Assembly: GCA_964016885.1 (NCBI GenBank) | Contig: OZ024743.1 | Location: 293,942,001 to 294,006,000, forward strand | Reading direction: 5' to 3' | Length of the DNA stretch: 64,000 nt | Origin: Eledone cirrhosa | Taxonomy: Eukaryota | Shown here: in pieces, positions 1 to 47,621 of the stretch | Position numbering within the stretch: position 1 is the stretch's first letter | Layout: each line of letters starts with the position of its first letter | The notes under the pieces: generated by a model | What the model saw: the letters and a program-made list of their open reading frames with translations, nothing else | What the model was told of the DNA's origin: nothing | The model's database searches: none | Program-made: the position numbers and the translations under genes

Positions 1-1371
1 CGATTTACCCCTTGTGCAACTAGTCATTGCATCCCGTACTTCAGCGGTTGTTATCGGCTTTTCGCAACACTCCGCCTCAGTGGCCGAAAGCCGCGGCAGT
101 CCGTCGAGGTAGACACTAAAGTCCATCCCTCGATCCGGCCCGCCACTGCCCCCGAACAGTTGAGCGAAGTGTTGCTGAAAAGCTTCACACATTTGCCCGG
201 GATCGAGTAGCATGCGCCCGTCGTGGTCCACCAAAGACCGGATCGTGGCTTTGTTGCCACGACGCGCCTCCGCCACTCGGGCCCATTGAACGGCTTTCGT
301 CCCCTCGTGTCTGAGAGCACGCACCCTAGCTCTGACAACGCAGCCTTCGTGCTTTGCATTGAAGAATTGGTCAAGGGCCAATTTCGCCGCAAGCACGTCG
401 GTCGCGATGCCTTTGCTAAGCGCCTCATCTAATTTTCTAACTAATTCTCCCTCTGCTCTATTTTTCTCTATTGCTAAAGTCTTACTAAACCTAATGGACT
501 CTATTCTAATTGCTCTTTTCAGAGCAAACCACCACTTTTTGTTGACGATGGCCCCCGTCAACGCCCGCTTAACTAGTTCGCTAATCCGGTCTCTGTAGGC
601 CTTGCGCGCTGGTAAGGACGCGTTTAACTTCCAGTAGCCGGGTCCTCGTCTATGAAGCCTATCTAAGTCAAGCACACAGATCACGAATTTGTGGTCCGTG
701 TAGCTGACTATCTTGAATTGTGGACAGCCTATGCTAGACCTATCTATTTCCCTACAAAATACTCTATCTAGATATGATCTGGATGACCCTATGCGATTTG
801 TCCAAGTCCACATGGGTACATTCGGGAAATCCATTCGGTACCTGTCAGACAGTTCAAAACGTCTGAGCAGGTTGGTGAGACTCTTGCACGCTCCTTCCCT
901 ATCCACTAATCCCACACAATCCCAGCGTGCATCTAAGATCCCGTTCCAGTCGCCCACTAACACTAAAGAGCGGGACGTTCCAAGAAAGGTCTCCAGACGC
1001 CGGAAGAAATCAGGCCGCCCTGCTCCTGTCGGGGCATAGACGGCCACTAACCTGAAAGCTTGCCCGTCTCCGCTGGTCACGTCCAGCACCACCAACTTAC
1101 CTTCTGGGTTCAGGAAGATGGCCCGTATGGCAAGATCCAAACCTCTCCGCAAAAGCACAGCAACTCCTCCCCCCGATCCCGAACGGCTGGGAGATGCGTA
1201 TACATCGTAGCCGCCGAAGATCGGTGCGAAAGCCTGTGCTTCGGAGATTCTGGTCTCGCTGATGGCCACTACATCTATGTTTAGTGACCTGAGGTCGTTG
1301 AGCAGGTGGCCCTGCTTCCATGACGACCCCAAGCCACGCGCATTTATGCTGCCCATTCTGAGTGAGGTCAT
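1..1371 (-). CDS. Tx1 ORF2 N-terminal part (APE endonuclease into RT), partial at window edge
   Basis: ATG at 1371 (MTSLRMGSINARGLGSS...). Near-identical to copy B ORF2 with no visible indel; missing from the ORF track, consistent with no stop before the window edge. Confidence 0.88.
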   Translation of the reverse strand, partial: MTSLRMGSINARGLGSSWKQGHLLNDLRSLNIDVVAISETRISEAQAFAPIFGGYDVYASPSRSGSGGGVAVLLRRGLDLAIRAIFLNPEGKLVVLDVTSGDGQAFRLVAVYAPTGAGRPDFFRRLETFLGTSRSLVLVGDWNGILDARWDCVGLVDREGACKSLTNLLRRFELSDRYRMDFPNVPMWTWTNRIGSSRSYLDRVFCREIDRSSIGCPQFKIVSYTDHKFVICVLDLDRLHRRGPGYWKLNASLPARKAYRDRISELVKRALTGAIVNKKWWFALKRAIRIESIRFSKTLAIEKNRAEGELVRKLDEALSKGIATDVLAAKLALDQFFNAKHEGCVVRARVRALRHEGTKAVQWARVAEARRGNKATIRSLVDHDGRMLLDPGQMCEAFQQHFAQLFGGSGGPDRGMDFSVYLDGLPRLSATEAECCEKPITTAEVRDAMTSCTRGKS

Positions 1372-1405
1372 GTTGAAAAGGAGTGGAAAAGATGGGAAAG
1401 ACCAC

Positions 1406-3390
1406 TTACCTTACTTCTCGTAGGGGAAGGACGGCTTTTCCATCCTTTTCACTGCTTGTGGCCTCCTCAGGAAGGATGTCCTTATAAATCCTCCTGGAGA
1501 GTGCTTGTCGGAAGTCTCCGATGTCTTTGGGGAATTTTTGTTTTAGTGTCATGTACGTTTTCTGTGTGATGCGAGTGATTTGTATGTGTGGAGGTGGTGT
1601 GAATTTTGGGGTTGTTGTGTAGTCTTTTTCTGTGATGCTGGTATTGTGTTGGATGTAGTGTAATAATTGCTTGTTGTTCAAATTTAATGCTGTGTAGTGT
1701 GTATCGTTTTGGTTGTTTTGTTTTGTTTGCGTTTGTTGTGGGTTTGTTTCTGTTTCGTATTTTGGTGACTTTTGTGGTGTAGGTGATAGTGGTGCTGGGG
1801 ATAATGATGGTGATGGTGTTGGTGTTTGGGTTGATGGGGTTGGTGATGCTGGTGTGGATGGTGGCATATCTGTCCTAACTTTTTTGTTTCTTAGTTTATT
1901 TGTTTCCCTCTGTATTTTGTTTTTGGAGGGGGAAGGAAGAGAATTTTTTCTTTTTTGGTTTCTTTTTTTTTTCCGGATATCGTTTCCCACTCCTCGTCGT
2001 CACAATCTGTCTCCAGTTGTGATAGGCCGGGGAGTGGAAAATCCTCCACAGCCGTTAGTTTTGGTTGTGGTGTGGTGGATGGTGTAGGCGCTGGTGCTTG
2101 TTCTGAAGCGTTGGGTGGTGGTGGTGTTCGTTTTGCTGGTGGTGGTAGTGGTGTTGGTTTTGCTACTGTTGCTGGGGTTGTTGCTGTTATAGTTGCTTCT
2201 GTTGTTGCTGCTACAGTTGTTGCTGCCATCTCTGCTACTGGTGGTGTTGATGGTTGTGTCACTGGGGTGGGTAGGAGAGGTGGCCTCAACCTTTTAGCCT
2301 GAGGGCAGAAAGCCCTTAGGTGGGTTCCTTCACCACAAACGACACACCTAGGTCTTCTGCCCTCGACAATTACCGTGAGGTGGCTGCCGTCAGTGAGGTC
2401 TATTACCTCTGGGATCTCCTCAATGCTTTTTTGGTCCGCTTGGATCAGGAGCTCCATCCCAGATCCGGACCAGTTTTCCTGCTTTTCTTTTGCTATTGTT
2501 ATTATTTTCGTGTTGGCCTCGATGCCGGCGATGACAGCCGCTATTAGCCAGGGAATTTCGATGGCCGGTGGAACGTGGGTCACCCTGATCTTTACGAGTC
2601 TCTGGCCACAATAGCTTGGGACGAGTGTGAAGTCGTCACTTTTTAATGGGGCCATGGAGTGTTCTCTAGCCTCCTCTGGTGTTTCAAAGAACACATCCAC
2701 GGTTCCATACTTTTGCCCACGTCTGATGTGGGTTTTTCTTGCCCACACATGTCCCAAAGCTTTTTGGATTTGGGACTCGGATGCCCGTTCCACTCGGCGC
2801 GATTTTACATTTATTGTTCTATACGACACGGTGCACAGGCGCCGATGCTCCATTTTATTAGGTGGGGGGGTGAGGCTGACCCTGTACCCATCTTTCTTTA
2901 CCATTTGTTTGGCATTTTCTAAATCTTCTTGAGTTACCGTGAACGCTTCGAATTGTTTTGCTACGATGGCGAAACTGAGGGTCGGTTTTATAATGTCATT
3001 GTTGTTGTTGTTGCTATCGTTAATATTAATTTTATTTTCAGTTGTGCTGGTGGTGACGTCAGTTGTCTTTGGTGGGGAAGAGTCCATTTTGCTTGATTTC
3101 ATTTCGACGTCACGAGTTAATTTATTTTTTTCTTCTTTTGTTTCTGTTGTCGCGGTGGTGGTGGTGGTGGTGGTTGTCGCGGTGGTGGTGGTGGTGGAGG
3201 GTTTAACACCTGCAGTCATTGGTAATGGCGGGAAATGAATGTCTGCCTGAGACAAATTTAAAATATTGCTACTGCTTATATTTTTTTTTGTGTTGGCAAA
3301 CGTAGTAACATTTACAATGGTGGTGTCGGTGTGAGGTGTTATTTTGTGAGGAAGGCTTTCAGCTGCTTCGTGCAGAGGGGAATTAGCCAT
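1406..3390 (-). CDS. Tx1 ORF1 (gag-like nucleic-acid binding protein, CCHC knuckle) of copy A, split by a frameshift in an A10 run
   Basis: ORF 1891..3390 contains CVVCGEGTHLRAFC (CX2CX4HX4C). ORF 1406..1990 supplies the C-terminus homologous to copy B (YKDILPEE vs YSDILLEE). The frame changes at the T10 run 1963-1972. Confidence 0.85.
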
Positions 3391-3599
3391 TTTTTTTCAA
3401 AGAAATTTTTGGATAATAATAAAAGTTAAAATTTTGGGCACAAGGCCCCAATCTTTTTGGGTGTCCTTTTCGGAAAACAATGTATGTGTGCTTATAAACA
3501 GTTTACAATAAAATTTTCCATAAATGGCAATTTTTAAACAAACGGAAATAACAAACCTTTGCGGAGCTCACGATAATACGATTTCCTACGTAGGTCGCC

Positions 3600-3634
<35 letters not shown>

Positions 3635-3895
3635 TTTCTTTATTAACCACAAGGGTTTACATAAAGTAGACATTAAGGACAGTGCAGGACAATGCAGGAC
3701 GGTACAAATGGGCATTTCTGCGTGTAAAAAAAACAAAAACAGAGGATGTAACAAAAATAACAATGAAAATAACAATGAAAAATTCCCCAATAGGGGGGAG
3801 ACTTCGGAGGGACATTTGTGGAGAAAGCCCAGTAAAAAGCCACAATGACCCTGACCACCAAGGCAAGTGCCCTCTCCCAGTTTTCCACCTTTAAT

Positions 3896-6800
3896 TTACA
3901 GATATATACTCAGAGTAGGCCCATTCACTCGGGCCATTCTTGCTTCTCTCACCCATCTTTCAACAAAATACTGGGAAGAGAGCACTTCCCTCTCTATTCT
4001 GATTTTCCTTTTCAAATGAAATTTGAAAAAGTCAATCAGAGCATCACCGAAGAGGTAAGTGCTCGTCTTCAGCCCTTTCAAACGTGTCCACCATACTATC
4101 TCTTTCGCCATGGCCACCAGACAGATAAAAACTGCCTGCCCTTCCCGGCTAAAGGAGGAGGGCGGGGCAATCCTCACGATGGACTCAGATGATAGCCGGA
4201 TCCGTCCTAAACGCGACAGCAGGTGTTCGACATAAACCCACAAGTCAGCAATTTTCGGACACTGGACGAGTGCGTGCAGGACGGTTTCGTCGCCCTGCGC
4301 GCATCTCGGACATGCCCGGCTGACGGCACCTCCATGCCTGTAGAGTTTATCCCGAACTGGCAAGGCTCCTCGGTAGCACTGCCAGGCCAGAGATTTCTGG
4401 AAGTTGTCCATAGGCCCCGGCCCGAAAGTTCTTCCGAAGAGATTGGCTAGTTGATTTTCGTCGACGCCTAGAGTTTCCCCAAGTACGTCGTCGCTCTTAC
4501 CCACCACTAATCCTCTATAGAACGCCGAGGTGGAGTTTCCACCGATCACATTGCCCGATTGGTCGAGGGCTGTGAGCGCCTGAAGACATTCCAGTCTCCA
4601 GGCGCTCCCTCTCGGTCTTCGCTTGACCCAGGACTGCAGCTCCGTCAAGGAAACGAGCTGGGGAAATACGTGTCTAGCAAACGGCGACCACACCTGATCA
4701 CCGTCGAGGAAGAGGTGGAGATGTCGTAGCCTGAGCGCGTACCTGCGCATCATCAGCCACGGCATGCCCAGCCCTCCACGTAGCGGGTGTTGACAACAGA
4801 TGGACCGCCTGACCATCGGAGCACGTCCCTTCCACAAAAAGCGAAAGAGCAAACGCTCCAGCGCAGTCAGGCGAGGCTTAGGACAAGGTACGACGGTCAG
4901 GCGGTAGCAGATGACAGACGCGATGTACGCGTTAGCCACCTCCGCTCGACCTTTCAGGGATAGCTTCCTCTCGGCCCATTTCTGGGTGAGAGAAGCCACC
5001 CTGCTCGTCACCTCGTCCCAGTTTTTGTCCGTCTGGAGGTCCGGACCGAACCAGACCCCTAGCAATTTAACCGGTCCGTCCGTCCAGCGTCCGACGACGC
5101 TGTTGGACGGCATGGAGCTGCCTCTCCAGGTGCCGAGCTGCAGGCCCACTGACTTTTCCTGGTTGATCATTGCTCCTGTCACCGCTTCGTATTCTCTTAG
5201 TGTAGTGCCGATCGCCTCGATGTGTTTGGCGTTCGACACCACTACGGTGACATCGTCCGCATAAGCTGACACGGATCTTCCGCATCCTAGTTCGCGCGGG
5301 ACTCCCCTCAACGTCTCCAGTTTGTGCAGTAATGGCTCGAGAGACAATACGTACAAGAGGGACGAGAGGGGACATCCTTGGCGGACCGAGCGCATGATGT
5401 TGAACGGTTCCGACAGGTGACCGTTCACTCTCACCACAGAGCAGATGTCGCTGTGCATGGCAGCGATCCAGCCTCTGAAGACGGGCCCAAAGCCAGCCGC
5501 CCTCAGGACTGCCGCTAGGTAACGATGGTCGACCCTATCGAAAGCTTTCGACTGATCTAAATTGATCAAGGACCCACCCGTGCCAGGTTCCTTAGCTACC
5601 CTCTCTATGATGTATCGCATGACGTGGAGGTTGTCGTGGATGGATCTGTCGGGAATGGCGCATGTCTGCGCCTCTCCCACCAGACCACCAACGACAAGCG
5701 CCAACCTCTTTGCTAGCACCTTGACCAAAATCTTGAACTCTGTGTTTAGCAGAGTTATGGGCCGGAAATTTTCTATGTTATCCCCCTTGTTCGGATCTTT
5801 TCTCAGCAGTGCCACCGCTCCTCGGCTCACAGAACTGGGAATTCTCCCGTTCTGTTGCCAGTTGCAGTAGACGTCCGCCAAGAGGCCTCCGAACAAGTCT
5901 GGCATCTGTACGTAAAGTTCATAGGGCAGACCATCCAAACCAGGCGATTTACCCCTTGTGCAGCCAGTCATTGCCTCCCTTACTTCAGCGGCTGTTATCG
6001 GCTTTTCGCAACACTTCGCCTCAGTGGCCGAGAGCCGCGGCAGTGCGTCGAGGTAGACACTAAAGTCCATCCCTCTACCCGGCCCACCGCTGCCCCCGAA
6101 CAGCTGAGCGAAGTGTCGCTGAAAAGCTTCACACATTTGCCCGGGATCGAGTAGCATGCGCCCGTCGTGGTCCACCAAAGACCGGATCGTGGCTTTGTTG
6201 CAACGACGCGCCTCCGCCACTCGGGCCCATTGAACGGCTTTCGTCCCCTCGTGTCTGAGAGCACGCACCCTTGCTCTGACAACGCAGCCTTCGTGCTTTG
6301 CATTGAAGAATTGGTCAAGGGCCAATTTCGCCGCAAGCACGTCGGTCGCAATGCCTTTGCTAAGCGCCTCGTCTAATTTTCTAACTAGTTCTCCCTCTGC
6401 TCTGTTATTCTCTATTGTTAAAGCCTTACTAAACCTAATCGATTCTATTCTAATCGCTCTTTTCAGAGCAAACCACCACTTGTTGTTGACGATGGCCCCC
6501 GTCAACGCCCGCTTAACTAGTTCGCTAATCCGGTCTCTGTAGGCCTTGCGCGCTGGTAAGGACGCGTTTAGCTTCCAGTAGCCGGGTCCTCGTCTATGAA
6601 GTCTATCTAAGTCAAGCACACAGATCACGAATTTGTGGTCCGTGTAGCTGACTATCTTGAATTGTGGACAGCCTATGCTAGACCTATCTATTTCCCTACA
6701 AAATACTCTATCTAGATATGATCTGGATGACCCTATGCGATTTGTCCAAGTCCGCATTGGCACATTCGGGAAATCCAATCGGTACCTGTCAGACAGTTCA

Positions 6801-7315
6801 AAACGCCTGAGCAGGTTGGTGAGGCTCTTGCACCCTCCACCCCTATCCGCTAATCCCACACAGTCCCAGCGTGCATCTAAGATCCCGTTCCAGTCGCCCA
6901 CTAACACTAAAGAGCGGGACGTTCCAAGAAAAGTCTCCAGACGCCGGAAGAAATCAGGCCGCCCTGCTCCTGTCGGGGCATAGACGGCCACTAGCCTGAA
7001 ATCTTTCCCTTCTCCGCTGGTCACGTCCAGCACCACCAGCTTACCCTCTGGGTCCAGGAAGATGGCCCGTATGGCGAGATCCAAACCTCTCCGAAAAAGC
7101 ACAGCAACTCCTCCCCCCGATCCAGGACGGCTGGGAGATGCGTACACATCGTAGCCGCCGAAGATCGGTGCGAAGGCCCGTGCTTCGGAGATTCTGGTCT
7201 CGCTGATGGCCACTACATCTATGTTTAGTGACCTGAGGTCGTTGAGCAGGTGACCCTGCTTCCATGACGACCCCAAGCCACGCGCATTTATGCTGCCTAT
7301 TCTGAGTGAGGTCAT
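3896..7315 (-). CDS. Tx1 ORF2: APE endonuclease + reverse transcriptase + C-terminal zinc finger, 1139 aa, intact
   Basis: APE motifs SINARGL, ISETR, VYAP, GDWN, YLDRVF, TDH; RT motifs KSPGLDG, FRPITLLN, DQSKAFDRV, RQGCPLS, YADD; zinc finger CPRC...ETVLHALVQC. Confidence 0.96.
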   Translation of the reverse strand: MTSLRIGSINARGLGSSWKQGHLLNDLRSLNIDVVAISETRISEARAFAPIFGGYDVYASPSRPGSGGGVAVLFRRGLDLAIRAIFLDPEGKLVVLDVTSGEGKDFRLVAVYAPTGAGRPDFFRRLETFLGTSRSLVLVGDWNGILDARWDCVGLADRGGGCKSLTNLLRRFELSDRYRLDFPNVPMRTWTNRIGSSRSYLDRVFCREIDRSSIGCPQFKIVSYTDHKFVICVLDLDRLHRRGPGYWKLNASLPARKAYRDRISELVKRALTGAIVNNKWWFALKRAIRIESIRFSKALTIENNRAEGELVRKLDEALSKGIATDVLAAKLALDQFFNAKHEGCVVRARVRALRHEGTKAVQWARVAEARRCNKATIRSLVDHDGRMLLDPGQMCEAFQRHFAQLFGGSGGPGRGMDFSVYLDALPRLSATEAKCCEKPITAAEVREAMTGCTRGKSPGLDGLPYELYVQMPDLFGGLLADVYCNWQQNGRIPSSVSRGAVALLRKDPNKGDNIENFRPITLLNTEFKILVKVLAKRLALVVGGLVGEAQTCAIPDRSIHDNLHVMRYIIERVAKEPGTGGSLINLDQSKAFDRVDHRYLAAVLRAAGFGPVFRGWIAAMHSDICSVVRVNGHLSEPFNIMRSVRQGCPLSSLLYVLSLEPLLHKLETLRGVPRELGCGRSVSAYADDVTVVVSNAKHIEAIGTTLREYEAVTGAMINQEKSVGLQLGTWRGSSMPSNSVVGRWTDGPVKLLGVWFGPDLQTDKNWDEVTSRVASLTQKWAERKLSLKGRAEVANAYIASVICYRLTVVPCPKPRLTALERLLFRFLWKGRAPMVRRSICCQHPLRGGLGMPWLMMRRYALRLRHLHLFLDGDQVWSPFARHVFPQLVSLTELQSWVKRRPRGSAWRLECLQALTALDQSGNVIGGNSTSAFYRGLVVGKSDDVLGETLGVDENQLANLFGRTFGPGPMDNFQKSLAWQCYRGALPVRDKLYRHGGAVSRACPRCAQGDETVLHALVQCPKIADLWVYVEHLLSRLGRIRLSSESIVRIAPPSSFSREGQAVFICLVAMAKEIVWWTRLKGLKTSTYLFGDALIDFFKFHLKRKIRIEREVLSSQYFVERWVREARMARVNGPTLSIYL

Positions 7316-7317
7316 GT

Positions 7318-9369
7318 TTAAAATAGAGTGGAAAAGATGGGAAAGACCACAGACCGTACTTTTGGTAGAGGAGGGATGGTTTTTACATCCCTTTTCACTT
7401 GATCGTCTGGTGAAGGGACCGTTGAATCGTCCCTTCGGCTGGTCGTCGGCTCTTCTAAGAGAATGTCTGAATATACTCTTCGATTGATGGTTCCTCCTAG
7501 GTCCCTGAAATCACCAACTGCGTTGGGGAATTTCGTTTTAATGTTTGTGTATTGTTTCTGTGCTATTTTTAGCAGTCTTATGTTAGTTGGCGTTTTGATT
7601 GGTGCTGGTATTATGTAGTCCTGTTGTGAAATGTCTGTGTGTTCAATTTTGTAAGTCATTAGTTTCTTGTTGTGTGTATTTATTGCCGTGCATTTGTTTT
7701 TCTGGGGGTGGGGTGTGGTTCTGCTATTTTCTTGTCGTTGTTGCTGGGTGTGTGTGTTTTGTTGTTGTGTTTGCGATGTTGGTGCTTGTGGTGGTGGTGT
7801 TGAAGGTGTTGTTGGCGGTGGGGTTGTCGCCGGTGGTGATGGTGGTGCTAGTGTGGGTGGTGATGGTGTTGGTGGTGTTGCTGCTGTGGGTCTCTTTGCA
7901 GTAGACTTTACCCTTTTCTCATTTCTTTCCTCCCTTTTCAAAGGCGACGATGCGCTGCTTCTGCGTTTGTGCCTTCTTACGACCTTTTGCCATCCCTCTC
8001 CCACCTTACACTCCATGTCTGATTCTGTGAGGTCGGGGAGGGGTACCAGCTCCACTCTTTCACTTGTTGTTGTTGGTGATGTTTGCACTGGAGTCTCTGT
8101 TGCAGCTGCATTTGGTATTGCTGTTGTTGTTGTTAATATTTCCACTGCTGCTGCTGTTTTTGATTTCCGTGGCGTGGGTATGGGTGCCACGGACCTATCG
8201 TTCCTGGTTGCCGCTTGTCCTGTTGCTGGTAGCCGTGGAGCCGGATTCGGAAGGAGGGGGGTTTTCTCCTTTCTCAGGGTCTTCTCGTTGCAGAAGGCCC
8301 TGAGGTGAGTCTTCGATCCACAGCGAAAGCATTTCGGGCGTTTGCCCTCAACACTTATGGGCAGTTGAGTGCCGTTATCGAAGTCTATCACATCCGGGAT
8401 AGCTTCGATGCACTCCTGGTTGGTTTGGATTAGCATCTCAATGGAGGTGCCGACCCAATCTTCTCTTACTTTTTTCTGTACTTGCAGTACAGTTGTTTTG
8501 TCCTCGATTCCGACGAGGACAGACGCGGCCAGCCAAGAAGGGGCCATTCCGGGTGGGACGTGGGTTAGTTTGACCCTCACAATTTTTTGCCCGCAGTAGG
8601 AGGGCACCAACACCATTTCCTCGCTCCTTAGGGTCACTACGGATTGGGCCTTTGCCTCCTGGGGTGTGGCAAAAAGTACGTCTACGGTGGCATATTTTTT
8701 GCCTCGGGTGATGTGCGTTTTCCACTGCCACACAGACCCCAAGGCTTTTTGTATTTGGGCCTCTGTGGCTCTTTCCACCCTACGGGATTTTGTACTTACT
8801 GTACGGTACGTGACCGTACAGTGCTGTTGGGTTTCGAAAAATGTTTCCGCTGCCTTGCAGATTGCTCGGTGTCCATTCTTTGTCACCATCTTCTTCGCTT
8901 CCTCTAATTCCTCATTTGTTATGAGGATTGTTTCCAAGTTTTTCGCAATACCTGCAAATGAGATTGGTTTTTCGTTGCTGCTGTTGTTGTTGTTGTCGTC
9001 AGAGCTGCTGTTACTTTTGTTGTTGCTGCAGGTACTACGACTACTGCCTTCGCCGCTGTTGCTGTGGTTGTTGTTGGTGTTGCTGCTGCTAATGCTGTTG
9101 TTGTTTATGCTGCTGGTGAAGCTGTTGCGGCTGCTACTGTTGTTTTCATTGTCACTGTTGCTGTTGTTATTACGGCTGCTACTGCTATTATTCCTGACGT
9201 CAGACGAATGAACTGGGTTTTCGTATTTCCCGCACACCTGTTTCGTCGCTGTCGTCGTCGTCGTGGAGAAACATTGCATGCTTTGCACGAGACTTTTCTT
9301 TTCTTTCGTCACTTGCGAAAGAGAAGGGAGGGAGAGAGACACATTTAAAGAAGGGAGGGAGAGAGTCAA
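7318..9369 (-). CDS. Tx1 ORF1 of copy B, up to 683 aa, CCHC knuckle, low-complexity N/S and P/T tracts
   Basis: CFRCGSKTHLRAFC knuckle; stop codon 2 nt before the ORF2 ATG (TAA-AC-ATG). True start codon uncertain. Confidence 0.9.
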   Translation of the reverse strand: MTLSLPSLNVSLSLPSLSQVTKEKKSLVQSMQCFSTTTTTATKQVCGKYENPVHSSDVRNNSSSSRNNNSNSDNENNSSSRNSFTSSINNNSISSSNTNNNHSNSGEGSSRSTCSNNKSNSSSDDNNNNSSNEKPISFAGIAKNLETILITNEELEEAKKMVTKNGHRAICKAAETFFETQQHCTVTYRTVSTKSRRVERATEAQIQKALGSVWQWKTHITRGKKYATVDVLFATPQEAKAQSVVTLRSEEMVLVPSYCGQKIVRVKLTHVPPGMAPSWLAASVLVGIEDKTTVLQVQKKVREDWVGTSIEMLIQTNQECIEAIPDVIDFDNGTQLPISVEGKRPKCFRCGSKTHLRAFCNEKTLRKEKTPLLPNPAPRLPATGQAATRNDRSVAPIPTPRKSKTAAAVEILTTTTAIPNAAATETPVQTSPTTTSERVELVPLPDLTESDMECKVGEGWQKVVRRHKRRSSASSPLKREERNEKRVKSTAKRPTAATPPTPSPPTLAPPSPPATTPPPTTPSTPPPQAPTSQTQQQNTHTQQQRQENSRTTPHPQKNKCTAINTHNKKLMTYKIEHTDISQQDYIIPAPIKTPTNIRLLKIAQKQYTNIKTKFPNAVGDFRDLGGTINRRVYSDILLEEPTTSRRDDSTVPSPDDQVKRDVKTIPPLPKVRSVVFPIFSTLF

Positions 9370-9651
9370 TTCTTTTTCGTAGCCATGTTGTTTTTTTTGT
9401 TTGAAATAAATATTGGGTACAAACCCCCAATAAGCAGTTATTTAACCCCGAAGGGCCAAATAACGGGCAGAAAGACCCCTCTCACGAGGAGGAGGGTGTT
9501 TTTGTCTACAAGTTGGTCTAAGTTTTAAACAATTTACAATTGTTAAAGCGTTCAAAATTTACAGTACCTTACAGAGCCGAGCCTCCGTCAACCATAGCAT
9601 TCAATAATAATAATAATAATAATAATAAAATTAAAAAAAATAATAAAAAAA

Positions 9652-10904
9652 ATAAAAAAATGAAGAAATTGATAAGAACTGAATACACACGGAGAGTAAG
9701 GAGCGTATTAAAGTCACATCTGAACAGTAGGAATGCCATAATTCCCGAGCTGTGTCTATTATTAGGTATATTGCGGGAATTCTGAGATAGAATGTTGCTG
9801 AACAAAAAGAAATGGATAGGAAGACTAGAAAGCTATTGACTATCTACAACATGTTCCACAAGAGGAGTGATGTCAATAGACTCTACTTAAGGAGATCTGA
9901 AGGTGGAAGAGGTCTTATCAGCATAGAGGACTGTGTTCAGATGGAGAAAAACAACCTACACAAATACGTGACTGATAGTAAGGAGCCAATGCTCAGAACT
10001 GTACTGAAGGAGAGGACAATAGACCAGGGGATGTCCAAGGAGAAAATAACAACAAGGAGAAAGAGCAGCCTTCAGGAAAAATCCCTTCATAGTACCTTCT
10101 TTGAGAAAACTGAATTCAGAGAACCACAGACATGGAACTGGTTGAAAAGAGGAGACCTTAAAAAGGCTACAGAAGGAATGTTAATGGCTGCGCAAGAGCA
10201 GGCCCTCAAAACGAAGTGGTTGAAACACCATATTTACAAGGAGGATGCTAGCCCACTGTGCAGGATCTGTGGAGAGAGAGAGGAGACTGTGGCTCATATT
10301 GTATCCGAGTGTAAACACCTAGCCCAGACTCACTATAAGGGCTGGAGACATGATGTGATGGACAGGGTGATCCACTGACACCTATGCAAAGTAAACAATT
10401 TACCACATTCTGAGAAGTGGTATGAGCATAAGCCAGAGTCGGTGATAGAAAACGATCAGGTGAATGTGCTGTGGGATTTTAGGATACAGACGGACAAGAA
10501 ACTGGAACACAATAGACCTGACCTGGTGGTTGTGGACAAAGAAAAAAGATCGTGCCTGATTGTGGATGTGGCCTGCCCATTCGACACGAGAGTGCAAGAG
10601 AAGGAGAGGGAGAAAATTAACCGATACCAGGACTTAAAGTGGGAGGTAAAAAGGATTTGGAACTGCCACGAAGTCAAAGTGGTCCCGATTGTCATAGGCG
10701 CACTAGGTACTATCTCAAAAAGATTCCAGGGATGGTTAAAGAAAATTGGCCCCTTCACGCTTTTTGGAACGCTTCAAAAGGCATGCTTGCTGGGAACAGC
10801 AAGAACCCTCCGATACGTACTGAATATCTGAGGCTGCAGGTAGTGGCTTGATATTCATTTCAACAAACATTCCAGTTAACTAACATCAATGACTGAGACT
10901 CAAA

Positions 10905-10907
<3 letters not shown>
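9652..10907 (+). mobile_element. R4/Dong-type RLE non-LTR retrotransposon, 5'-truncated copy 1 (pseudogenised)
   Basis: CCHC CRICGEREETVAHIVSEC, RHD motif, and PD-(D/E)xK endonuclease LWDFRIQTD...RPDLVVVD...IVDVACPFD...EKINRY. ORF ends 10831; short 3' UTR then (TAA)n at 10905-10952; internal stop. Confidence 0.9.
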
Positions 10908-10952
<45 letters not shown>

Positions 10953-13713
10953 GTGAGGAAATTACTTGGCATGAAAGCGAGAGGAAACAACAAACAAGAA
11001 AGATCAGAACCTTGGTGGAAGAAACGACTGAATGGTCAAATCAGGGAAATGAGAAATGACATTGGAAGATTGAGTCCCTACTGAATGGGACACTAAAAAA
11101 CATAGACACTAAAAATAGACAGGAAATAAAGTACAAAACTAGGAGGAAAAAGCTAAATATTATCATAGAGGAACTGAAGCAACGCATTGTAGCAAAGAGT
11201 GCACAAATTAGGCGATACGAGAGAAAAGTCTGTCAGTATAGACAGAACCGCATGTTTGACAACAACCAGAAGATGCTGTTTGGACAGCTTGAGGGGAAAG
11301 AAAGAGGCAACGACTAGATCCCTGAGGCGGAACGAACTAAGACGTTCTGGAGAGGAATATGGGATCAGGATGTTAAATATAATGACCAGGCAGTGTGGAT
11401 TGAGACAGTACAAAAGGATATTAGTGAACAGGCACACCAACAAACTGATTTGAGTATCACAGTTGAAACTCTTAAGGGGCAGGCCAAAAAACTAACCAAC
11501 TGGAAATCACAGGCCCAGATGGTGTGCAGGAGTATTGAATTAAAAATATAACATCCCTCCACCCGAAACTGACAACCACGTTCAATGACTGCTTGATGTC
11601 AGGTGAGGTACTAGAGTGGTTGACAAAAGGTACCACAGTTCTGGTAATGAAAGACTGAATCAAGGGTAATGATGTTACCAACTATAGACCTATCACATGT
11701 CTGTCCGTAATGTGGAAACTGTTGACAAGCATTATGTCTGAGGAAATCTACCATCACCTCCACACAAACAACTTGTTACCGGAAGAACAGAAAGGATGCC
11801 GAAAGAAGTCCCGTGGTACAAAGGACCAGTTACTTATTGATAAGATGGTAATGAGGAATTGCAAGAGGAGACACACTGGTCTTGACATGGGATGGATAGA
11901 CTACAAAAAGGCATTTGACATGGTGCCTCATTCTTGGATCACCAAAAGCCTAGAGATCTTCAAGGTGGCAGATAACATCAGACAGTTGTTGGGCAAAAGT
12001 ATGAAGTCCTGGAAAACAGAGTTAACATCAGCTGGAGTTTCCTTGGGAGGCGTGACGATCAAGAGAGGTATCTTCCAGGGAGATAGTCTGTCCCCTCTGT
12101 TGTTTGTCCTTGCCCTGATGCCCCTGACCATTATACTGCGAAAAGTGAGAGCAGGATACAAGTTGGGAAAGGGAGAGCTTATAAATCAATCACCACTTCT
12201 TCATGGACGATCTTAAGCTCTTCGGGAAGAGTGAGAAGGAGTTGGATGTGCTCGTTGGCACTGTCCGTATTTTCAGCAATGATATATGTATGCAATTTGG
12301 TATTAGTAAGTGTGGAGTCCTTGTGATGAAGAGGGGTAAATTGAGCAGAAGCAACGGAATCCAGGTACCAACAAGTGAGATGATAAAGGAAATTGACACT
12401 GAAGAAGGATACAAGTATTTGGGTGTTCTGGAGGCTGATGACACAAAGAACAAAAAAAATGAAGGAATTGATAAGATCTGAATACATTCGGAGAATAAGG
12501 AGCGTATTAAAGTCACATCTGAACATTAGGAATGCCATAAATGCAGTAAATTCCCGAGCTGTGTCTATTATTAGGTACATTGCGGGAATTCTGAGATAGA
12601 ATGTTGTTGAACAAAAGGAAATGGATAGGAAGACTAGGAAGCTATTGACTATCTACAGCATGTTCCATAAGAGGAGTGATGTCGATACTTAAGGAGATCT
12701 GAAGGTGGAAGAGGTCTTACCAGCATAGAGGACTGTGTTCAGATGGAGAAAAACAACCTACACAAATACGTGACTGATAGTAAGGAGCCAATGCTCAGAA
12801 CTGTACTGAAGGAGAGGACAATAGACCAGGGGATGTCCAAGGAGGAAATAACATCAAGGAGAAAGAGCAGCCTTCAGGAAAAATCCCTTCATAGTACCTT
12901 CTTTGAGAAAACGGAATTCAGAGATCCACAGAGAAGGAACTGGTTGAAAAGAGGAGACCTTAAAAAGGCTACAGAAGGAATGTTAATGGCTGCGCAGGAG
13001 CAGGCCCTCAAAACGAAGTGGTTGAAACACCATATATTCAAGGAGGAGGCTAGCCCACTGTGCAGGATCTGTGGAGAGGGAGAGAGAGAAGTGACTGTGG
13101 CTCACAATGTATCCGAATGTAAACACCTAGCCCAGACTCACTATAAGGGCTGGAGACATGATGTGATGGGCAGGGTGATCCACAGGCACCTATGCAAAGT
13201 GAACAATTTACCACATTCTGAGAAGTGGTATGAGCATAAGCTAGAGTCGGTGATAGAAAACGATCAGGTGAAGGTGCTGTGGGATTTTAGGATACAGACG
13301 GACAAGTAACTGGAACACAATAGGCCTGACCTGGTGGTTTTGGACAAGGAAAAAAGATCGTGCCTGATTGTGGATGTGGCCTGCCCATTCGACACGAGAA
13401 TGCAAGAGAAGGTGAGGGAGAAAATTAACCGATACCAGGACTTAAAGTGGGAGGTAAAAAGGATTTGGAACTGCCATGAAGTCAAAGTGGTCCCGATTGT
13501 CATAGGCGCACTAGGTACTATCTCAAAAAGATTCCAGGGATGGTTAAAGAAAATTGGCCCCTTCACGCTTTTTGGAACGCTTCAAAAGGCATGCTTGCTG
13601 GGAACAGCAAGAACCCTCCGATACGTCCTGAATATCTGAGGCTGCAGCTAGTGGCTTGATATTCATTTCAACAAACTTTCCAGTTAACTAACATCAATGA
13701 CTGAGACTCAAAG
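10953..13713 (+). mobile_element. R4/Dong-type RLE non-LTR retrotransposon, 5'-truncated copy 2 with RT (pseudogenised)
   Basis: RT motifs [45 protein letters not shown]; same CCHC/RLE C-terminus and 3' UTR as copy 1; several stops and frameshifts; ends in (TAA)n. Confidence 0.92.
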
Positions 13714-13774
13714 AATAATAATAATAAGAAGAAGAAGAAGAACAACAACAACAATAATAATAATAATAATAGTA

Positions 13775-14599
13775 ATGATTTCTTTATTGGCCACAAGCGC
13801 TGACATCAAGAAAAACATTACAGACGGCACAGGACGGTACAGGACATTACGATGTGGGTTTTGTGCGTGTAAAATTTGTTATTATTTATATAAAAAAAGA
13901 AAAGAAGACATAGAAACATATATATATATATATAAACAATAAAAATGAAAATTGAAACAGCGAAAAATTCCCCAATAGGGGGGAAACCTCCGAGGGTTAC
14001 TCGTGGCGGAAACCACACACAAGACCACGGCCACCCTGACCACCAGGGCAAGCGCCCTCTCTCAATTTTTCCATTTCTCAAACTACAGGCGTATATTCAG
14101 AGCGGCCCCGTTCACTCGGACCATTCTCGCTACATTCACCCACCTTTCAACAAACTTGCTAGAAGGCAGCACTTGCCTCTCCACCCTGATTTTCCTCTTC
14201 AAGTGAAACTTGAAAAAGTTAATTAGGGATTCGCCGAAGAGGAAAGTGTCTGTCTTTAACCCTTTAAACCTTGTCCACCACACAATCTCTTTCGCCATGG
14301 CCACCAGGCAGATGACAACCGCCTGCCCTCCCTCCTCGAAGGAAGAGGCGAGACCATCTGCACAATGGACACAGTCGATAACCGGATCAGTCCCACACGC
14401 GACAGCAACTGTTCGACATAGCTCCACAAGTCAGCAATGCTCGGGCACTGAACGAGTGCGTGCACGACGCTTTCATCGCTCTGCGCGCATCTCGGACAGG
14501 CACTGCTTACGGCACTTCCGTGCCTGTAGAGCTTATCTCGAACCTCCAACGCTCGCCGGTAGCTCTGCCAGGCAAGTAACTTTTGGAAGTTATCTATAG
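13775..14599 (-). mobile_element. Tx1 copy C, 3' fragment (ORF2 C-terminus and 3' UTR)
   Basis: Homologous to copy B 3633-4415 (CPRCAQSDESVVHALVQC; MAKEIVWWTR); same AATAAA-GAAATCA-(TTA)n end. Confidence 0.9.
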
Positions 14600-15730
14600 T
14601 TGCCCTCCTACTCACTGCGTTTGTTTTCTGCCCTGCTCTTGGTAGCAGAGGACCAGGTATTGGAAGGTAACGGGCAGGAAACAAACGCAGTATCCCCTTC
14701 CACGTTGAGTAGGAGGGCAACGTCCGTGGCACCCGTAACAATGCCACGGACAACTAAAGCAGCAGCATCAGTGGCGGCAACAACCAATAGCTACATTTAC
14801 AGTAGCTGCACCAGCAACAAAATAGCCGGAGAGGGCTCCACTACCACCACCAACAGCCGTGGAGCACATACCCTCCCAGACGCCACGGAATCCGACATGC
14901 AGTCTGAGGCGGGAGTGAAGTGGCAAACGGTCTGCCACAAAAAACAAAAAAACAAAAAAAAACTTAGATTCACCCTCCAAAAGCGAAGGCACACAAAGAG
15001 CGGTAAAGGCTGGAAGGAGACTTGCAGCCACACCACCACCATCACCATGACCACAACAAGCACCACCGCCAACAACAACCACACCAAAACCAGCATCACC
15101 AAAAAACACCAACAACGCAAACACAACAAAACGCACACACCCCACCAACACCAAGAACTCTCCCGACAAACATAAGAATCATTGATATCAAAATAGAACA
15201 GTACAAACTTTTAAAACAAAAAATTCCCCAACTCAGTTGGAGACTTCAGAGGGTCGGTTACCAAGAGGATATACACTGACATCCTCTTGTAATCACCCTT
15301 GACCAGCGAAAGGGACGGTTCTACTGTCCCTTCACCACACGATCAAGGTAAGTGACCCTTTCTGACTTGCCCCGTTTCTCATCCAACATGGCTGTACTTA
15401 GAATAGGCAGTATAAATGCACGTGGCCTGGGGTCATCTTAGAAGCAGGGTCACCTGCTCAACGACCTCAGGTCACTAAACATAGATGTGGTGGCAATCAG
15501 CGAGACCAGAATCTCCGAAGCACAAGTCTTAGCACCGATCTTCGGCGGATACGATGTATACGCATCTCCCAGCCGTCTAGGATCGGGGGGAGGGGTTGCC
15601 GTCCTTTTTCGGAGAGGCTTGGATCTCGCCATACGGGCCATCTTCCTGGACTCAGAAGGTAAGTCGGTGGTGCTGGGACGTGACCGGCAGCGAAGGCAAT
15701 GCTTTCAGGCTAGTAGCCATATACGGCCAG
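14600..15730 (+). mobile_element. Inverted Tx1 fragment: ORF1 C-terminal half and ORF2 N-terminus (APE), pseudogenised
   Basis: LPDATESDMQSEAGVKWQTV matches ORF1-B LPDLTESDMECKVGEGWQKV. ORF2 ATG at ~15388 (MAVLRIGSINARGLGSS*KQGH). Ends at (TTA)n 15731-15765. Confidence 0.88.
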
Positions 15731-16179
15731 TTATTATTATTATTATTATCATTATTATTATTATTTTGAATTTTATATCTTTCATTGATTTTATCTAACC
15801 GGTTATTATTCTTATTATTATTGCTACTGACGATTGGTTTGTTCAGATGTACATTTTATCAGTCTGGTAAGTTTTGTTTCAGTTCTTTGTCATGTCCTCT
15901 CTTTGTTAATTTTCTTAAGTTTACATATATGTATATATTGTCTACTTTGTGATAGCAAGTTTAAAAAATATGCAGAAAACATTATTAAATTCTGAATTCT
16001 ATGAGATAAATAAAGCTTACAAGTAGAACCATAGTTTCATTTGACTACTTACCTGATCAACATTATGCCTTAGGAGGTTTGGAACGAAAGTTTGATCGAC
16101 GTGCTGATCGAACGAGATCACAGTTTATGCGTGTAAAATCCTGGTTTAGCTCACAAATTACAACACAAACACCACACAG

Positions 16180-20752: not shown

Positions 20753-20805
20753 AATATATATGCATATGTATATATGCATATATATATATGCATATGTATA
20801 TATGC

Positions 20806-20902
<97 letters not shown>

Positions 20903-21377
20903 ATTAAATAAATGGAAAACTATATTTATAAAACCATATTTATTTCATTATATATATTTCGGGGATATCATATTAACAATATGCTATGCCTTCATCAGAC
21001 AAAATACAATATAAACAGTTTTATAGATAAATATATTCGACATACCGTAATAAACATCAACTTCATTTGAAGAGGTTTACTCTAGCAGTGAAAATACAGA
21101 GAGAAAGAAAGAGAGAGAGAAAAGAGGGAAATAAGAAAGAAAGAAAGACAAAACGAAGAAAAGGAAGAAAAAGAAGAAAAAGAAAAAGAAGAAATGCATG
21201 GGACAAAATAGAGAGATGGAAAAATAGATAAAGCGAAGAGCTTCATGTAAAGAGACAGAAAGAGATATATATATATATATAGAGAGAGAGGAAATAGAGA
21301 TAGATACATATATAAATATAGATATAGAAAAATTAGGTAGTGGGAGGTCATTTTGAGTAAGTGTATCAATGATGCAT

Positions 21378-21428
<51 letters not shown>

Positions 21429-22178
21429 GCTCAAGTATTAATGTAAGGGAGATATATAGAGAGATATAGAGAGATATAGAGAGAGAAAAAATTTAAAAAT
21501 AGCCAGACATATTCGAGGCGTAGAAAACCCTATGTTTTAATGTATTAGTATTTATAAAACTTACACTATATTGTAAATATCAGTATTCCTGAATGAAACA
21601 AGTATTCACAATGCGTGAAAATTCATTATCTTATGTTTAGTTTTTTAAAAAATTCATATGTCTATGTGAATCCAACTGATTCACTCCGCAAATTCAAAGT
21701 TACCGGAAAACATTCTCAATGTGGTATAAAAATTTGAGCGTATTATTATTCTTGCGATTACTCTACAAGATTATCTATCAAGCAGAAATAGAGAGCAGAT
21801 TTCAATATACTAATCGAAAATATATATTATATTATAAGCAGAGATAACAATAATAATGATAATAAGTAAAAATATATAAAAATATAAAAATATAGAATAG
21901 AAAACTAAAAAAGAATATTACGAAAGAATATTACATAATAAAAATATTGCATATTAAAAATACTACGTATTAAAAATATTACGTATTAAAACTTTACATA
22001 TAAAAATATTAAAAATAAAAATTTACATATAAAAATATTAAAAATAAAAATAAAATAAAATAAAAAATAAAAAGTAACAACTTTTTTAATTACGGCAACA
22101 ACATTAACAACTATAATAGAAAGCAATACAATAATTCCAAAGGACAAAAAAGAAATAGAACTAGGAACATAATTTGGT

Positions 22179-22835
22179 TTGCCCCCCCCTTTCTCACTAA
22201 ACATTAAAACCCACATCGCTAAATTATTTTTCAAAGCTCTTGATAATCGCTTCCCTAGAACACATAGGTACCACTCAATCTTCAATAGGCATACAATTAA
22301 ATTAACCTACTCATCCACCAAAAATTTAGCACAAAATATTAATAGAATAAATAATAGGAACTTAAAACCTACTGATAATAGCATAAATAATATACAAGTT
22401 AACAAATGTAACTGTAGAGATAGATCTAAATGTCCGTTAAATAACAACTGCTTAGTTAAAAATATAGTATACAATTGTAATGTTAATACTGACTCTAATT
22501 CTTTTAACTACGTCGGTTCCACATCGACGGAATTTAAACTTCGCTATAATAACCACAAGAATTCTTTCACAGATCCAAATAAAAAATCTTCAACGGCACT
22601 ATCAGGTGTACTCTGGCAACTTAAGCTAGATAACGTTAGATATTCGACGGCTTGGAATATAGTCTCAAGAGGGATTCCTTTTAATTCATCCTCTGAGACA
22701 TGTGACCTCTGCGCAGAGGAGATATTCTTTATACTAAAATCTAAAAATTCCCTTAACCTACGGACAAATTTATTCAGTTGTTGCAAACATAGATTAAACT
22801 CAACGTTTAAATATAAATTTAAATTTAAAATGTAG
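22179..22835 (+). CDS. Penelope (Naiad-type) C-terminal GIY-YIG endonuclease, partial
   Basis: PPFSLNIKT...IFNRHTIKLTYS, CNCRDRSKCPLNNNCL, NIVY...YVGSTSTEFKLRYNNH, CDLCAEE, CKHR. Confidence 0.88.
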   Translation: MPPPFSLNIKTHIAKLFFKALDNRFPRTHRYHSIFNRHTIKLTYSSTKNLAQNINRINNRNLKPTDNSINNIQVNKCNCRDRSKCPLNNNCLVKNIVYNCNVNTDSNSFNYVGSTSTEFKLRYNNHKNSFTDPNKKSSTALSGVLWQLKLDNVRYSTAWNIVSRGIPFNSSSETCDLCAEEIFFILKSKNSLNLRTNLFSCCKHRLNSTFKYKFKFKM

Positions 22836-24011
22836 TATATTTAGTTTGATTTATATTTATATGAGAACTAGCCGATAAATCTTTTGATTCCTAAATCTTT
22901 GATTCCCTCTTTTTACTCTTTTTATTGTTTATTTTATTTTATTTATTTTTATTTTTATTTTTATTTTTATTTTTATTTTTATCTAAACATTCCTCATGAA
23001 AAATTAAGCTACCCTAAAAGCCGATGCTCCAAATTTTTTGAATTAACCTTACACTTGATAAACTTATATATTAAATATAGGAACATATGTAGACATTATT
23101 GGACATCATAATCTTTTTTTGCGATATTCCTTGCTAGATGTGATTTGATAGATAATTTTTGGCTTTGTCTTGTAGTGAACTTGGCAATATATTGTCAATT
23201 AACTTTGAAGGGTTGTTCTTTGTGGTTTATTTTTATTTTCATTTTTATTTTTATTTTTATTTTTATTTTTATTTTTATTTTTATTTTTATTTTTATTTTT
23301 ATTTTTATTTTTATTTTTATTTTTATTTTTATTTTTATTCTTTTAGTATTGTAGTATTCTATAATATTTTTATTTTTTATTTTATTTTATTTTTATTTTT
23401 AATATTTTTATATGTAAATTTTTATTTTTAATATTTTTATATGTAAAGTTTTAATACGTAATATTTTTAATACGTAGTATTTTTAATATGCAATATTTTT
23501 ATTATGTAATATTCTTTCGTAATATTCTTTTTTAGTTTTCTATTCTATATTTTTATATTTTTATATATTTTTACTTATTATCATTATTATTGTTATCTCT
23601 GCTTATAATATAATATATATTTTCGATTAGTATATTGAAATCTGCTCTCTATTTCTGCTTGATAGATAATCTTGTAGAGTAATCGCAAGAATAATAATAC
23701 GCTCAAATTTTTATACCACATTGAGAATGTTTTCCGGTAACTTTGAATTTGCGGAGTGAATCAGTTGGATTCACATAGACATATGAATTTTTTAAAAAAC
23801 TAAACATAAGATAATGAATTTTCACGCATTGTGAATACTTGTTTCATTCAGGAATACTGATATTTACAATATAGTGTAAGTTTTATAAATACTAATACAT
23901 TAAAACATAGGGTTTTCTACGCCTCGAATATGTCTGGCTATTTTAAAATTTTTTCTCTCTCTATATCTCTCTATATCTCTCTATATATCTCCCTTACATT
24001 AATACTTGAGC

Positions 24012-24046
<35 letters not shown>

Positions 24047-24417
24047 ATGCATCATTGATACACTTACTCAAAATGACCTCCCACTACCTAATTTTTCTAT
24101 ATCTATATTTATATATGTATCTATCTCTATTTCCTCTCTCTCTATATATATATATATATATCTTTCTGTCTCTTTACATGAAGCTCTTCGCTTTATCTAT
24201 TTTTCCATCTCTCTATTTTGTCCCATGCATTTCTTCTTTTTCTTTTTCTTCTTTTTCTTCCTTTTCTTCGTTTTGTCTTTCTTTCTTTCTTATTTCCCTC
24301 TTTTCTCTCTCTCTTTCTTTCTCTCTGTATTTTCACTGCTAGAGTAAACCTCTTCAAATGAAGTTGATGTTTATTACGGTATGTCGAATATATTTATCTA
24401 TAAAACTGTTTATATTG

Positions 24418-24484
24418 TATTTTGTCTGATGAAGGCATAGCATATTGTTAATATGATATCCCCGAAATATATATAATGAAATAA
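24418..24484 (+). ncRNA. Minimal type I hammerhead ribozyme (inverted copy at 20940-21007)
   Basis: TATTTTGT-CTGATGA-stem II (imperfect)-GAAA-T-ATAT-A-TA|ATGAAATA; palindromic stem III loop. Confidence 0.7.
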
Positions 24485-24611
24485 ATATGGTTTTATAAAT
24501 ATAGTTTTCCATTTATTTAATATTGTAAATATACTCCAAGTATTTGTCGAGTGCTTTTATATCAGTTATAAATATTTACTAGTTGTAACCCAACAATTTT
24601 AAATATAACTT

Positions 24612-24692
<81 letters not shown>

Positions 24693-26960: not shown

Positions 26961-28150
26961 CTAGCAGAATGGCCCTGCGTTTCTCGGGATTTGCTCTAGG
27001 GTTCTTATATATTTGATATATATATTTATCCCTATCGAGCCTCGTGAAATAAATACATTTGTTTATATTTTGTTATTGTGTATGCAAAAATATTTGCACA
27101 CGAATATATAATTATATATATATATATATATTAAAATAACAGATTAAAGTTTTAAGCAAAGAATCACTGCTTTCACACTTAACAGGATCTCTGAAACTAA
27201 AAATCAATCTGTGAACGCAGAAAATGACTCTCTGCTTTCACCCTTGACGGGATCTTCTACCTAAAAGCAGTATGAAGTATACGAAGACTAACTGATGTAA
27301 CCGTTGGCCTTGTTTGTTTATATTTTGTTTTTGTGTATGCAAATATATCTCTCAGTGATGCATGTGATTATGTAATCGCCAGCCTTGTTTGTTTATATTT
27401 TGTTTTTGTGTTTGCAAATATATCTGTACACTATATCTATATTAAAATAAAATATTAATGTTTAAGCAGTGAATTGGCAGTATCGGTAGAGGGTCGGACG
27501 CCATGCTTTGACGCATAGAGTTACGGCCCTTGCCATTCTGAGTTCAAATCCCGCCGAGGTTAACTTTACGGGGTCGATAAAATAAAGTACCAGTAATGTA
27601 CTGGGTAATTTGCTGGCCTTGTGCCAATAGTAGAAACAATTAACGTTTAAGCAAAGAATCGCTGTTTTCAATCTTAACGGGATCTTCTGAAACTAAAAAA
27701 GTCAATTTGTGAACGCAGATGTAAATATTTCGAAAAACGTTGCAACCGATAGAAAACAGGAAGACGATACTTTGGTTCGGGAAGACGTTCCCTGGCATAA
27801 TAATATATATATATATATATACACACACACTATATATACATATATACACACACATACTGATCGCGTCATAATGTGGTAATGCAGACAATAGGCATACAGA
27901 CAGATATTATGAAGGCGCGACGTCATATCTATGTATCTATCTAAAAAGAGAAAGACTAAGAGAAAGAGAAAGAGATCGCTAAATCGCCTAATGCAGTCCC
28001 TAGGGCATTGAAAATTTGAAATTGCTTTTGCTCAGAACACTCAATAGGATCATAAGTATTACATGTGTAATGTTTGAAAAAAAAAACGGTTGGGTAATTC
28101 TCGAGTTTTAGGGAAACATACACAGACATTCTTAGTTTTATATATATAGA
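26961..28150 (-). mobile_element. Non-autonomous Helitron-like element with nested insertions
   Basis: Minus strand A|TCTATATATATAAAACTAAGAATGTCTG at 28150 and subterminal hairpin plus CTAG|T at 26961. Pairing of the two ends is inferred. Confidence 0.6.
27465..27640 (+). mobile_element. tRNA-derived Nin/Deu-core SINE inserted in a family X arm
   Basis: B-box GAGTTCAAATCCC; core GGGGTCGATAAAATAAAGTACC; TSD ATTAA(T/C)GTTTAAGCA. Confidence 0.8.
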
Positions 28151-30262: not shown

Positions 30263-30316
30263 ATAATTTACTGGGGTGGGGGTATATATATATTATATAT
30301 ATTATATATATATTAT

Positions 30317-34953: not shown

Positions 34954-35043
<90 letters not shown>

Positions 35044-44715: not shown

Positions 44716-44776
<61 letters not shown>

Positions 44777-47620: not shown

Positions 47621-47621
47621 A

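Follow-up and report, generated by a model that had tools for sequence, protein, structure and literature searches.

Tx1-like LINEs and two R4/Dong-like families occupy the same (AAT)n repeats in opposite orientations in Eledone cirrhosa

The window analysed here, a 64,000-nucleotide stretch of the Eledone cirrhosa genome (contig OZ024743.1, positions 293,942,001 to 294,006,000), is a piece of a 379-Mb contig in a 3.0-Gb genome. Its positions 1-15765 form the right end of a stack of at least 35 kb in which long interspersed nuclear elements (LINEs) of two kinds are separated by (AAT)n tracts: Tx1-like elements on the minus strand, with an apurinic/apyrimidinic endonuclease (APE) and a reverse transcriptase (RT), and R4/Dong-like elements on the plus strand, with an RT and a restriction-like endonuclease (RLE). 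The locus raises the question of how two LINE clades come to share one repeat, and why they do so in opposite directions. We find that a Tx1-like lineage and two R4/Dong-like families occupy the same (AAT)n repeats in opposite orientations, probably because the Tx1 endonuclease starts reverse transcription on the AAT strand and the R4 enzyme does so on the TTA strand.

A mixed stack of LINEs joined by (AAT)n tracts

The stack opens in the window with Tx1-like copy A (subfamily A; 1-3599, minus strand), which comprises the 5' untranslated region (UTR), open reading frame (ORF) 1 (open 1891-3396) and the APE-encoding start of ORF2 (open 1-1410). Copy A extends past the window edge, from its 5' end at 3599 to about -2289, and its first 210 nt have 100% identity in all 40 scored matches. 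A plus-strand (AAT)11 tract (3600-3632) separates it from the 3' end of copy B, a full-length minus-strand Tx1-like element (3633-9602; ORF1 open 7318-9441, ORF2 open 3896-7510). The 3' signals of copy B (3639-3657, minus) are a 4-bp hairpin whose loop reads CUUGU (3645-3657) and then AAUAAA (3639-3644), and the element ends AATAAA-GAAATC-(ATT)n. Copy B meets R4 copy 1 head-to-head across a second plus-strand (AAT)n tract (9603-9630, with an A-rich decay to 9647). This copy, of the family we call R4a (9648-10905, plus), is followed by a plus-strand (AAT)15 tract (10906-10952) and by R4a copy 2 (10953-13713, plus). Both are 5'-truncated and broken, are 96% identical to a near-intact R4a copy, and end in (AAT)n: copy 1 corresponds to positions 3156-4423 of the near-intact copy, with the CCHC and RLE region and stops, and copy 2 to positions 1662-4423, with RT-CCHC-RLE and a frameshift. 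R4 copy 2 in turn meets a Tx1 copy of subfamily C tail-to-tail across a degenerate (AAT/GAA/CAA)n tract (13714-13776, plus) that contains GAA, CAA and AGT units. Overall, this layout agrees with the first-pass annotation, which had described (TAA)n tracts at the four junctions, minus-strand Tx1 copies ending AATAAA-GAAATCA-(TTA)n instead of poly(A), plus-strand R4/Dong copies ending in (TAA)n, and the tail-to-tail meeting of R4 copy 2 with Tx1 copy C.

Upstream of the window, the stack continues for at least 20 kb with four further Tx1 elements, whole or in part; every one of them is on the minus strand, and their order is C, D, B and then the remainder of A. The Tx1 copies of the stack are 77-97% identical to each other, and therefore did not arise by simple duplication. 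It is very unlikely that such stacks arose when a few insertions were multiplied by tandem duplication or unequal crossing-over, their (ATT)n tails having grown by slippage: the subfamilies follow each other as C, D, B, A, B and C, with these identities, beside two R4 copies truncated at different points, and short interspersed nuclear elements (SINEs, described below) at unique sites gain no ATT units beyond their target-site duplications (TSDs). The same process would be consistent with tract lengths around A copies, which range from 0 to 26 perfect ATT units, and with a homogeneous head-to-tail array of seven near-identical B-type 5' ends spaced ~6-12 kb apart elsewhere in the genome (G000:C4:222061274-222110529). 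Tandem duplication is thus largely refuted for the window array, and may apply to single homogeneous clusters of this kind.

The domain layouts of the proteins suggest different clades for the two kinds of element. Copy B has two open frames, and its ORF2 matches Exo_endo_phos, RVT_1 and zf-RVT; the Tx1-clade layout is present, with two ORFs and, in ORF2, an N-terminal APE, an RT and a C-terminal zinc-binding region. A CCHC knuckle, a feature of the Tx1 clade, is seen in ORF1, which has no Pfam match. The catalytic residues of the copy B APE are intact and alignable with L1-EN. The only named match of the Tx1-like ORF2 is a coral "Transposon TX1 149 kDa protein" (31% identity, E = 4e-84); human L1 ORF2 gives a weaker score (E = 5e-52), but from a different database. 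A and B are 95% identical in ORF2 and only 50% in their ORF1 cores, a common ORF2 joined to diverged 5' UTR/ORF1 modules. The 5' UTR differs from one Tx1 subfamily to the next; in each it starts with G and carries a hairpin immediately before ORF1 (3390-3599 and 9385-9602; also L121 and L122, loci fetched from the genome), with a CUUGU loop in this hairpin in subfamily A only.

The R4-like elements have a single ORF with RT, CCHC and a PD-(D/E)xK restriction-like endonuclease, the last judged by eye from its motif, and no APE. R4a has an open frame of 1073 amino acids; R4b, a second R4-like family, has one of 1216 amino acids, and the two proteins are 36-39% identical. Their best PDB matches are R2 proteins, and no named R4 or Dong is among the 120 listed of 401 homologs. 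We considered sequence borrowing between Tx1 and R4; the only match among the reference copies is a 25-nt CAC repeat, and borrowing is unsupported for these subfamilies.

At the right end of the array, Tx1 copy C departs from this simple picture. Its 3' part (13777-14599, minus; 78% identical to B and 93% to the upstream C copy) is joined over a 3.6-kb gap to a further piece (14600-15730, plus): a short minus-strand remnant folds back (~14600-14675) into plus-strand sequence (14672-15728) holding the end of ORF1 and the start of the APE (C positions 1494-2618). A (TTA)n tract of reverse polarity (15731-15765, plus) closes the array. The first-pass annotation, which ran the array to 15770, had overlooked both the rearrangement and the reversed tract. 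Twin priming is rejected for copy C because the polarity of the outer tract is wrong and the junction is a fold-back. Copy C more plausibly represents a fold-back duplication with later deletions, in which case it would not breach the polarity rule. Long fold-back inverted repeats also lie at 20778-24670, 34090-34965 and 44775-48548, with arms of up to 1.3 kb that are 88-98% identical, and comparable fold-backs in other loci yield inverted SINE pairs and (TAA)n(TTA)n junctions, the latter in seven fetched loci.

Insertion sites and polarity across the genome

The 21 nt that open subfamily A have 621 exact occurrences, of which 579 lie directly after ATTATTATT. Of the 60 A copies that we fetched, 58 were taken by their position on contig 1 and two as exceptions; all 60 have an ATT tract upstream, imperfect in some. 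The upstream neighbour beyond the tract is an R4 element head-to-head in 22 cases, a Tx1 tail in 17, a SINE tail in 5 and unclassified in 16; for the 52 copies whose 3' end was found, the downstream neighbour is an R4 element tail-to-tail in 15, Tx1 in 11, a SINE in 5 and unclassified in 21. Eight of these 52 retain an open frame of 1150 codons or more. An ATT tract likewise precedes each of the 30 B 5' ends with the best scores, one of which belongs to the window copy. Among 39 Tx1 copies selected through their 3' end, the 27 that are full-length all join as ATT|G. The first-pass annotation proposed a TAA/TTA-specific Tx1 family, to be refuted if most copies had non-TAA 5' flanks; for full-length elements the flanks are overwhelmingly of the TAA type, and that description is supported. 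At least three perfect ATT units follow 24 of 30 position-ordered Tx1 3' ends, and none of the 30 has poly(A).

Two copies at imperfect sites show directly what an insertion does to its target. At one locus (L175), a 26-bp tract including an imperfection is present on both sides of a full-length Tx1 copy, and at another (L176) a truncated Tx1 copy, inserted outside any repeat, is flanked by a TSD of 17-19 bp. Tx1 itself therefore contributes no more than one or two ATT units, and the target is duplicated at each insertion. The remaining tracts are mostly uninformative for TSDs, being either perfect or mutated since insertion. These duplications back the earlier proposal that each insertion regenerates its target. 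They also qualify the claim that Tx1 ends in (TTA)n: a tract is indeed present at the 3' end, and it is mostly duplicated target rather than a templated tail.

The (ATT)n before full-length Tx1 elements could instead come from the RNA, by a read-through leader or a template jump, with an endonuclease that has a short-motif preference only. We consider this improbable, given that the 3' side of the L175 copy repeats the whole 5' tract with its imperfection, and that truncated copies, too, adjoin ATT tracts. Among short truncated copies in the position-ordered set (three other flagged rows, with apparent internal deletions or an edge effect, were excluded), the 5' junction is ATT-like in five of seven. 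Moreover, 22 of the 60 A copies adjoin an opposite R4 head, and the R4-made tracts therefore predate those Tx1 insertions. In addition, no hepatitis delta virus (HDV)-like ribozyme was found at Tx1 5' ends by Rfam (A and B) or by a home-made descriptor used without a positive control (A, B, C and D). An RNA origin would nonetheless account for the fixed ATT|G phase at the 579 A 5' ends, for the many 5'-broken copies without ATT and for the near-identical B copies in runs ~6 kb apart; a short motif suffices for the SINE, as described below, and R2 RNAs with upstream target sequence are known (PMC3774820).

Several observations at these ends weigh against target-specific insertion by Tx1. Seven of the 12 5'-broken copies selected through their 3' end have no ATT at the break (of the other five, three abut long tracts, one a short tract, and one has a TSD starting ATTATT), and two of the seven short truncated copies likewise lack it. 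Some broken 5' ends may be internal deletions, which affect 16 of the 39 copies. Target-specific insertion does not account for the fixed ATT|G phase of full-length 5' ends: in 22 cases the ends of SINE TSDs favour no particular step, and microhomology blurs nine of 11 truncated junctions and with them the phase of the second nick.

The sharing of tracts with R4 follows a nearly absolute polarity. We classified flanks at 352 distinct tracts, leaving 184 of 704 flanks unclassified; the loci were chosen through these elements and the counts are not genome frequencies, a further point against the argument, but within them Tx1 ends are ATT-sense in 248/248 cases, R4a ends AAT-sense in 196/202 and SINE ends ATT-sense in 68/70. 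Position-ordered R4a 3' ends lie in AAT tracts in 29 of 30 cases, and all 33 R4b 3' ends lie in the same tracts with the same polarity as R4a. By exact motif, the genome holds 9,913 Tx1 A/B tails and 9,701 R4a tails. Over the first 43.7 Mb of contig 1, we took 100 Tx1 tails in order of position; 20 of them have an R4a tail facing them at no more than 200 bp, where 0.07 would be expected, and none has one at that distance in any other arrangement. Successive Tx1 tails lie within 15 kb of each other in 40 of 99 cases, with 3% expected, and 36 of those 40 are co-oriented. The mixed arrays in opposite orientations noted in the first-pass annotation are thus a recurrent feature of this genome.

Other elements touch the same kind of tract. 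In L354, L358 and L387, another element end has a G right after the ATT tract and perhaps belongs to a further Tx1 subfamily, and a different family of repeats, which terminates in a short (AAT)4 beside (TA)n, lies at 25335, 28162 and 62538 and adjoins an R4a tail in L395.

A SINE with a Tx1-like tail

A SINE of ~185 nt, tRNA-type by eye from its A- and B-box-like motifs, is represented in the genome by 144,147 exact 25-nt tails. Its 3' end aligns with Tx1 ends around the CUUGU-loop hairpin, with stems that compensate across A/B, C, D and the SINE. Over 18 rows, hand-picked and related family representatives, 87.5% of cells are paired, double changes occur in three of the four pairs, and 0/500 shuffles reach the covariation score. 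Copies with a Tx1-like tail and TSDs starting with ATTA lie within the window at ~27450-27640, 30316-30500, 32000-32080, 45146 (minus-strand offset) and 53430-53630.

SINE insertions differ from those of the LINEs in their sites. None of 30 position-ordered SINEs has four or more terminal ATT units, and 25 of the 30 have a TSD of at least 7 bp. We took 141 SINE ends, dropped 27 in long tracts and kept 114, of which 55 have TSDs of 10-23 bp; 54 of these 55 start with ATTA. Immediately before the TSD stands C in 30, T in 22, A in 3 and G in none, a pyrimidine in 52/55 compared with 186/305 in the background (p = 1e-7). One SINE (L393) even bears the terminal 15 nt of Tx1-D. Overall, these data suggest that the Tx1 lineage probably drives this abundant short element with a similar tail.

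The same sites bear on a further explanation of the polarity, in which Tx1 leaves the repeat uncut and primes on AAT-strand 3' ends provided by the R4 second-strand nick or by fragility of the repeat. An R4 second nick would hit the AAT strand, predicting exactly the opposite polarity observed, and R4 often adjoins Tx1. We nevertheless find this account hard to credit: the APE catalytic residues are intact, SINEs far from tracts show L1-like TSDs and a Y|ATTA consensus, and the L176 copy has its TSD at a non-repeat site.

The link between the SINE and Tx1 has its own weak points. The hairpin is tiny, its folding z-scores are not significant, and the relatedness and manual choice of the 18 rows lessen the force of the covariation. 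Eight of the 55 TSDs begin ATTAAA, at least four of them at one recurrent Tx1 A site and non-independent. A search for a LINE with the exact SINE stem and AATAAA found none, the sole match being the SINE of L393 with its Tx1-D end.

SINE copies occupy one site within Tx1 A ORF1 in L313, L316, L322 and L329 (also L189), either as a hot spot or through spread of a SINE-bearing LINE. The window also contains a further APE-and-RT LINE with a PHD finger (37849-41049, minus), which we take to be CR1-like. It is followed by a short GAT repeat, with no ATT tract, and we rejected it as the SINE partner because the downstream region, by eye, has no such tail.

Proposed mechanism and relation to known elements

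In target-primed reverse transcription, priming takes place on the strand complementary to the sense strand of the element. The primer strand would be AAT for Tx1 and the SINE and TTA for R4, so that their opposite polarity would follow. By the same reasoning from polarity and mechanism, the Tx1 APE would nick the strand opposite to that cut by the RLE, as the first-pass annotation suggested. If Tx1 ORF2p moves the SINE, as we infer, the first nick would fall at 5'-WAAT^R-3' on the AAT strand, a pyrimidine/purine step like the TTTT/AA of L1. The freed ...AAT-3' end could pair with AUU at the 3' end of Tx1 RNA, and a staggered second nick 10-26 nt away would duplicate the target, so that one tract becomes two. 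Both clades could reuse these tracts, and a stack would grow insertion by insertion. Tx1 ORF2p would also bind the CUUGU-loop hairpin common to the SINE, which would then land on short Y|ATTA(T) sites.

More speculatively, the AAUAAA 6-7 nt before the LINE end may place cleavage within the flanking tract, so that the RNA gains an (AUU)n guide; a LINE RNA with several AUU units from its own flank might need a longer match, and hence use long tracts only. Taken together, these steps would describe a short-motif nickase (WAAT^R) whose stringency is set by the RNA through the (AUU)n guide of the LINE, and, with two R4 families using the other strand, a self-doubling landing pad for three kinds of element, a joint reading that we offer tentatively and with more doubt than confidence. 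Under RNA-set stringency, ~10,000 LINE copies would be confined to long AAT tracts by their own (AUU)n, and a SINE that mimics the hairpin and needs to match over only 3-6 nt would have reached more than 140,000 short sites.

Each half of this system has precedents. Kibi on (TC)n, Koshi on (TTC)n and crocodilian families on (TTCC)n/(TTTC)n are described as Tx1-clade elements that target microsatellites (PMC4494074; PMC3812793), and like the elements here are APE-type L1/Tx1 elements with microsatellite-specific insertion. By comparison of descriptions only, the Eledone elements differ in their A+T-only (AAT)n target, which is common to an RLE clade in reverse polarity, and in their cephalopod host. 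Dong, of the R4 clade, is reported to target TAA, a snail family included (PMC3812793; PMC3774820; PMC4640811). Like Dong, DongAg and DongBg, R4a and R4b have a single ORF with RT, CCHC and RLE, and (TAA)n flanks their sense strand, as in a Dong 5' junction primer (PMC3774820). They differ in being two families, at 36-39% protein identity, on one target; moreover, Dong is described as having an HDV-like ribozyme, whereas a crude search detected none at R4 5' ends by Rfam (R4a) or by the descriptor without a positive control (R4a and R4b). In Octopus vulgaris, recently active Dong-R4 (5 families) and L1-Tx1 (13 families) elements are reported (PMC13282606).

Human L1 endonuclease cuts 5'-TTTT/AA-3' (PMC1950540). 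The Tx1 APE resembles it in its catalytic residues, an L1-length betaB6-betaB5 loop, the inferred pyrimidine/purine nick and TSDs of 10-26 bp. The sequence of this loop is different, and in length the loop falls two residues short of that of Tx1L in the LTX chimera. The primer, too, would end in AAT rather than oligo(T), and no poly(A) is copied in 30/30 3' ends. For the SINE, L1-clade SINE/LINE pairs with a shared 3' stem-loop are described in maize and Chlamydomonas, in an account that counts only three SINEs with L1-clade tails (PMC3747384), and SINEU has been linked to Tx1-Mar through its target (PMC4494074). The Eledone pair is like such stringent pairs in its homologous tails, covarying hairpin, common polarity and common target motif, and differs in that its SINE is much less confined to particular targets than its LINE.

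Insertion of Dong into TAA repeats and of Tx1 elements into microsatellites is thus already known. We did not find an AAT target for Tx1, or the sharing of a microsatellite in opposite polarity, described in the open literature, though Repbase, subscription papers, figures and supplements may hold it. Microsatellite targeting itself has been called "not well understood" (PMC3812793).

These findings extend the targets of the Tx1 clade to an A+T-only repeat, and indicate that two endonuclease types, likely acting on opposite strands, have converged on one repeat, a convergence that builds multi-kb stacks and gathers thousands of LINEs at few loci. They also name a likely driver for a SINE of more than 144,000 copies, where SINEs with L1-clade tails are rare. 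Finally, the contrast between LINE and SINE, together with copies that keep open frames, would provide a simple system for separating the roles of the endonuclease and of RNA-DNA pairing in target choice.

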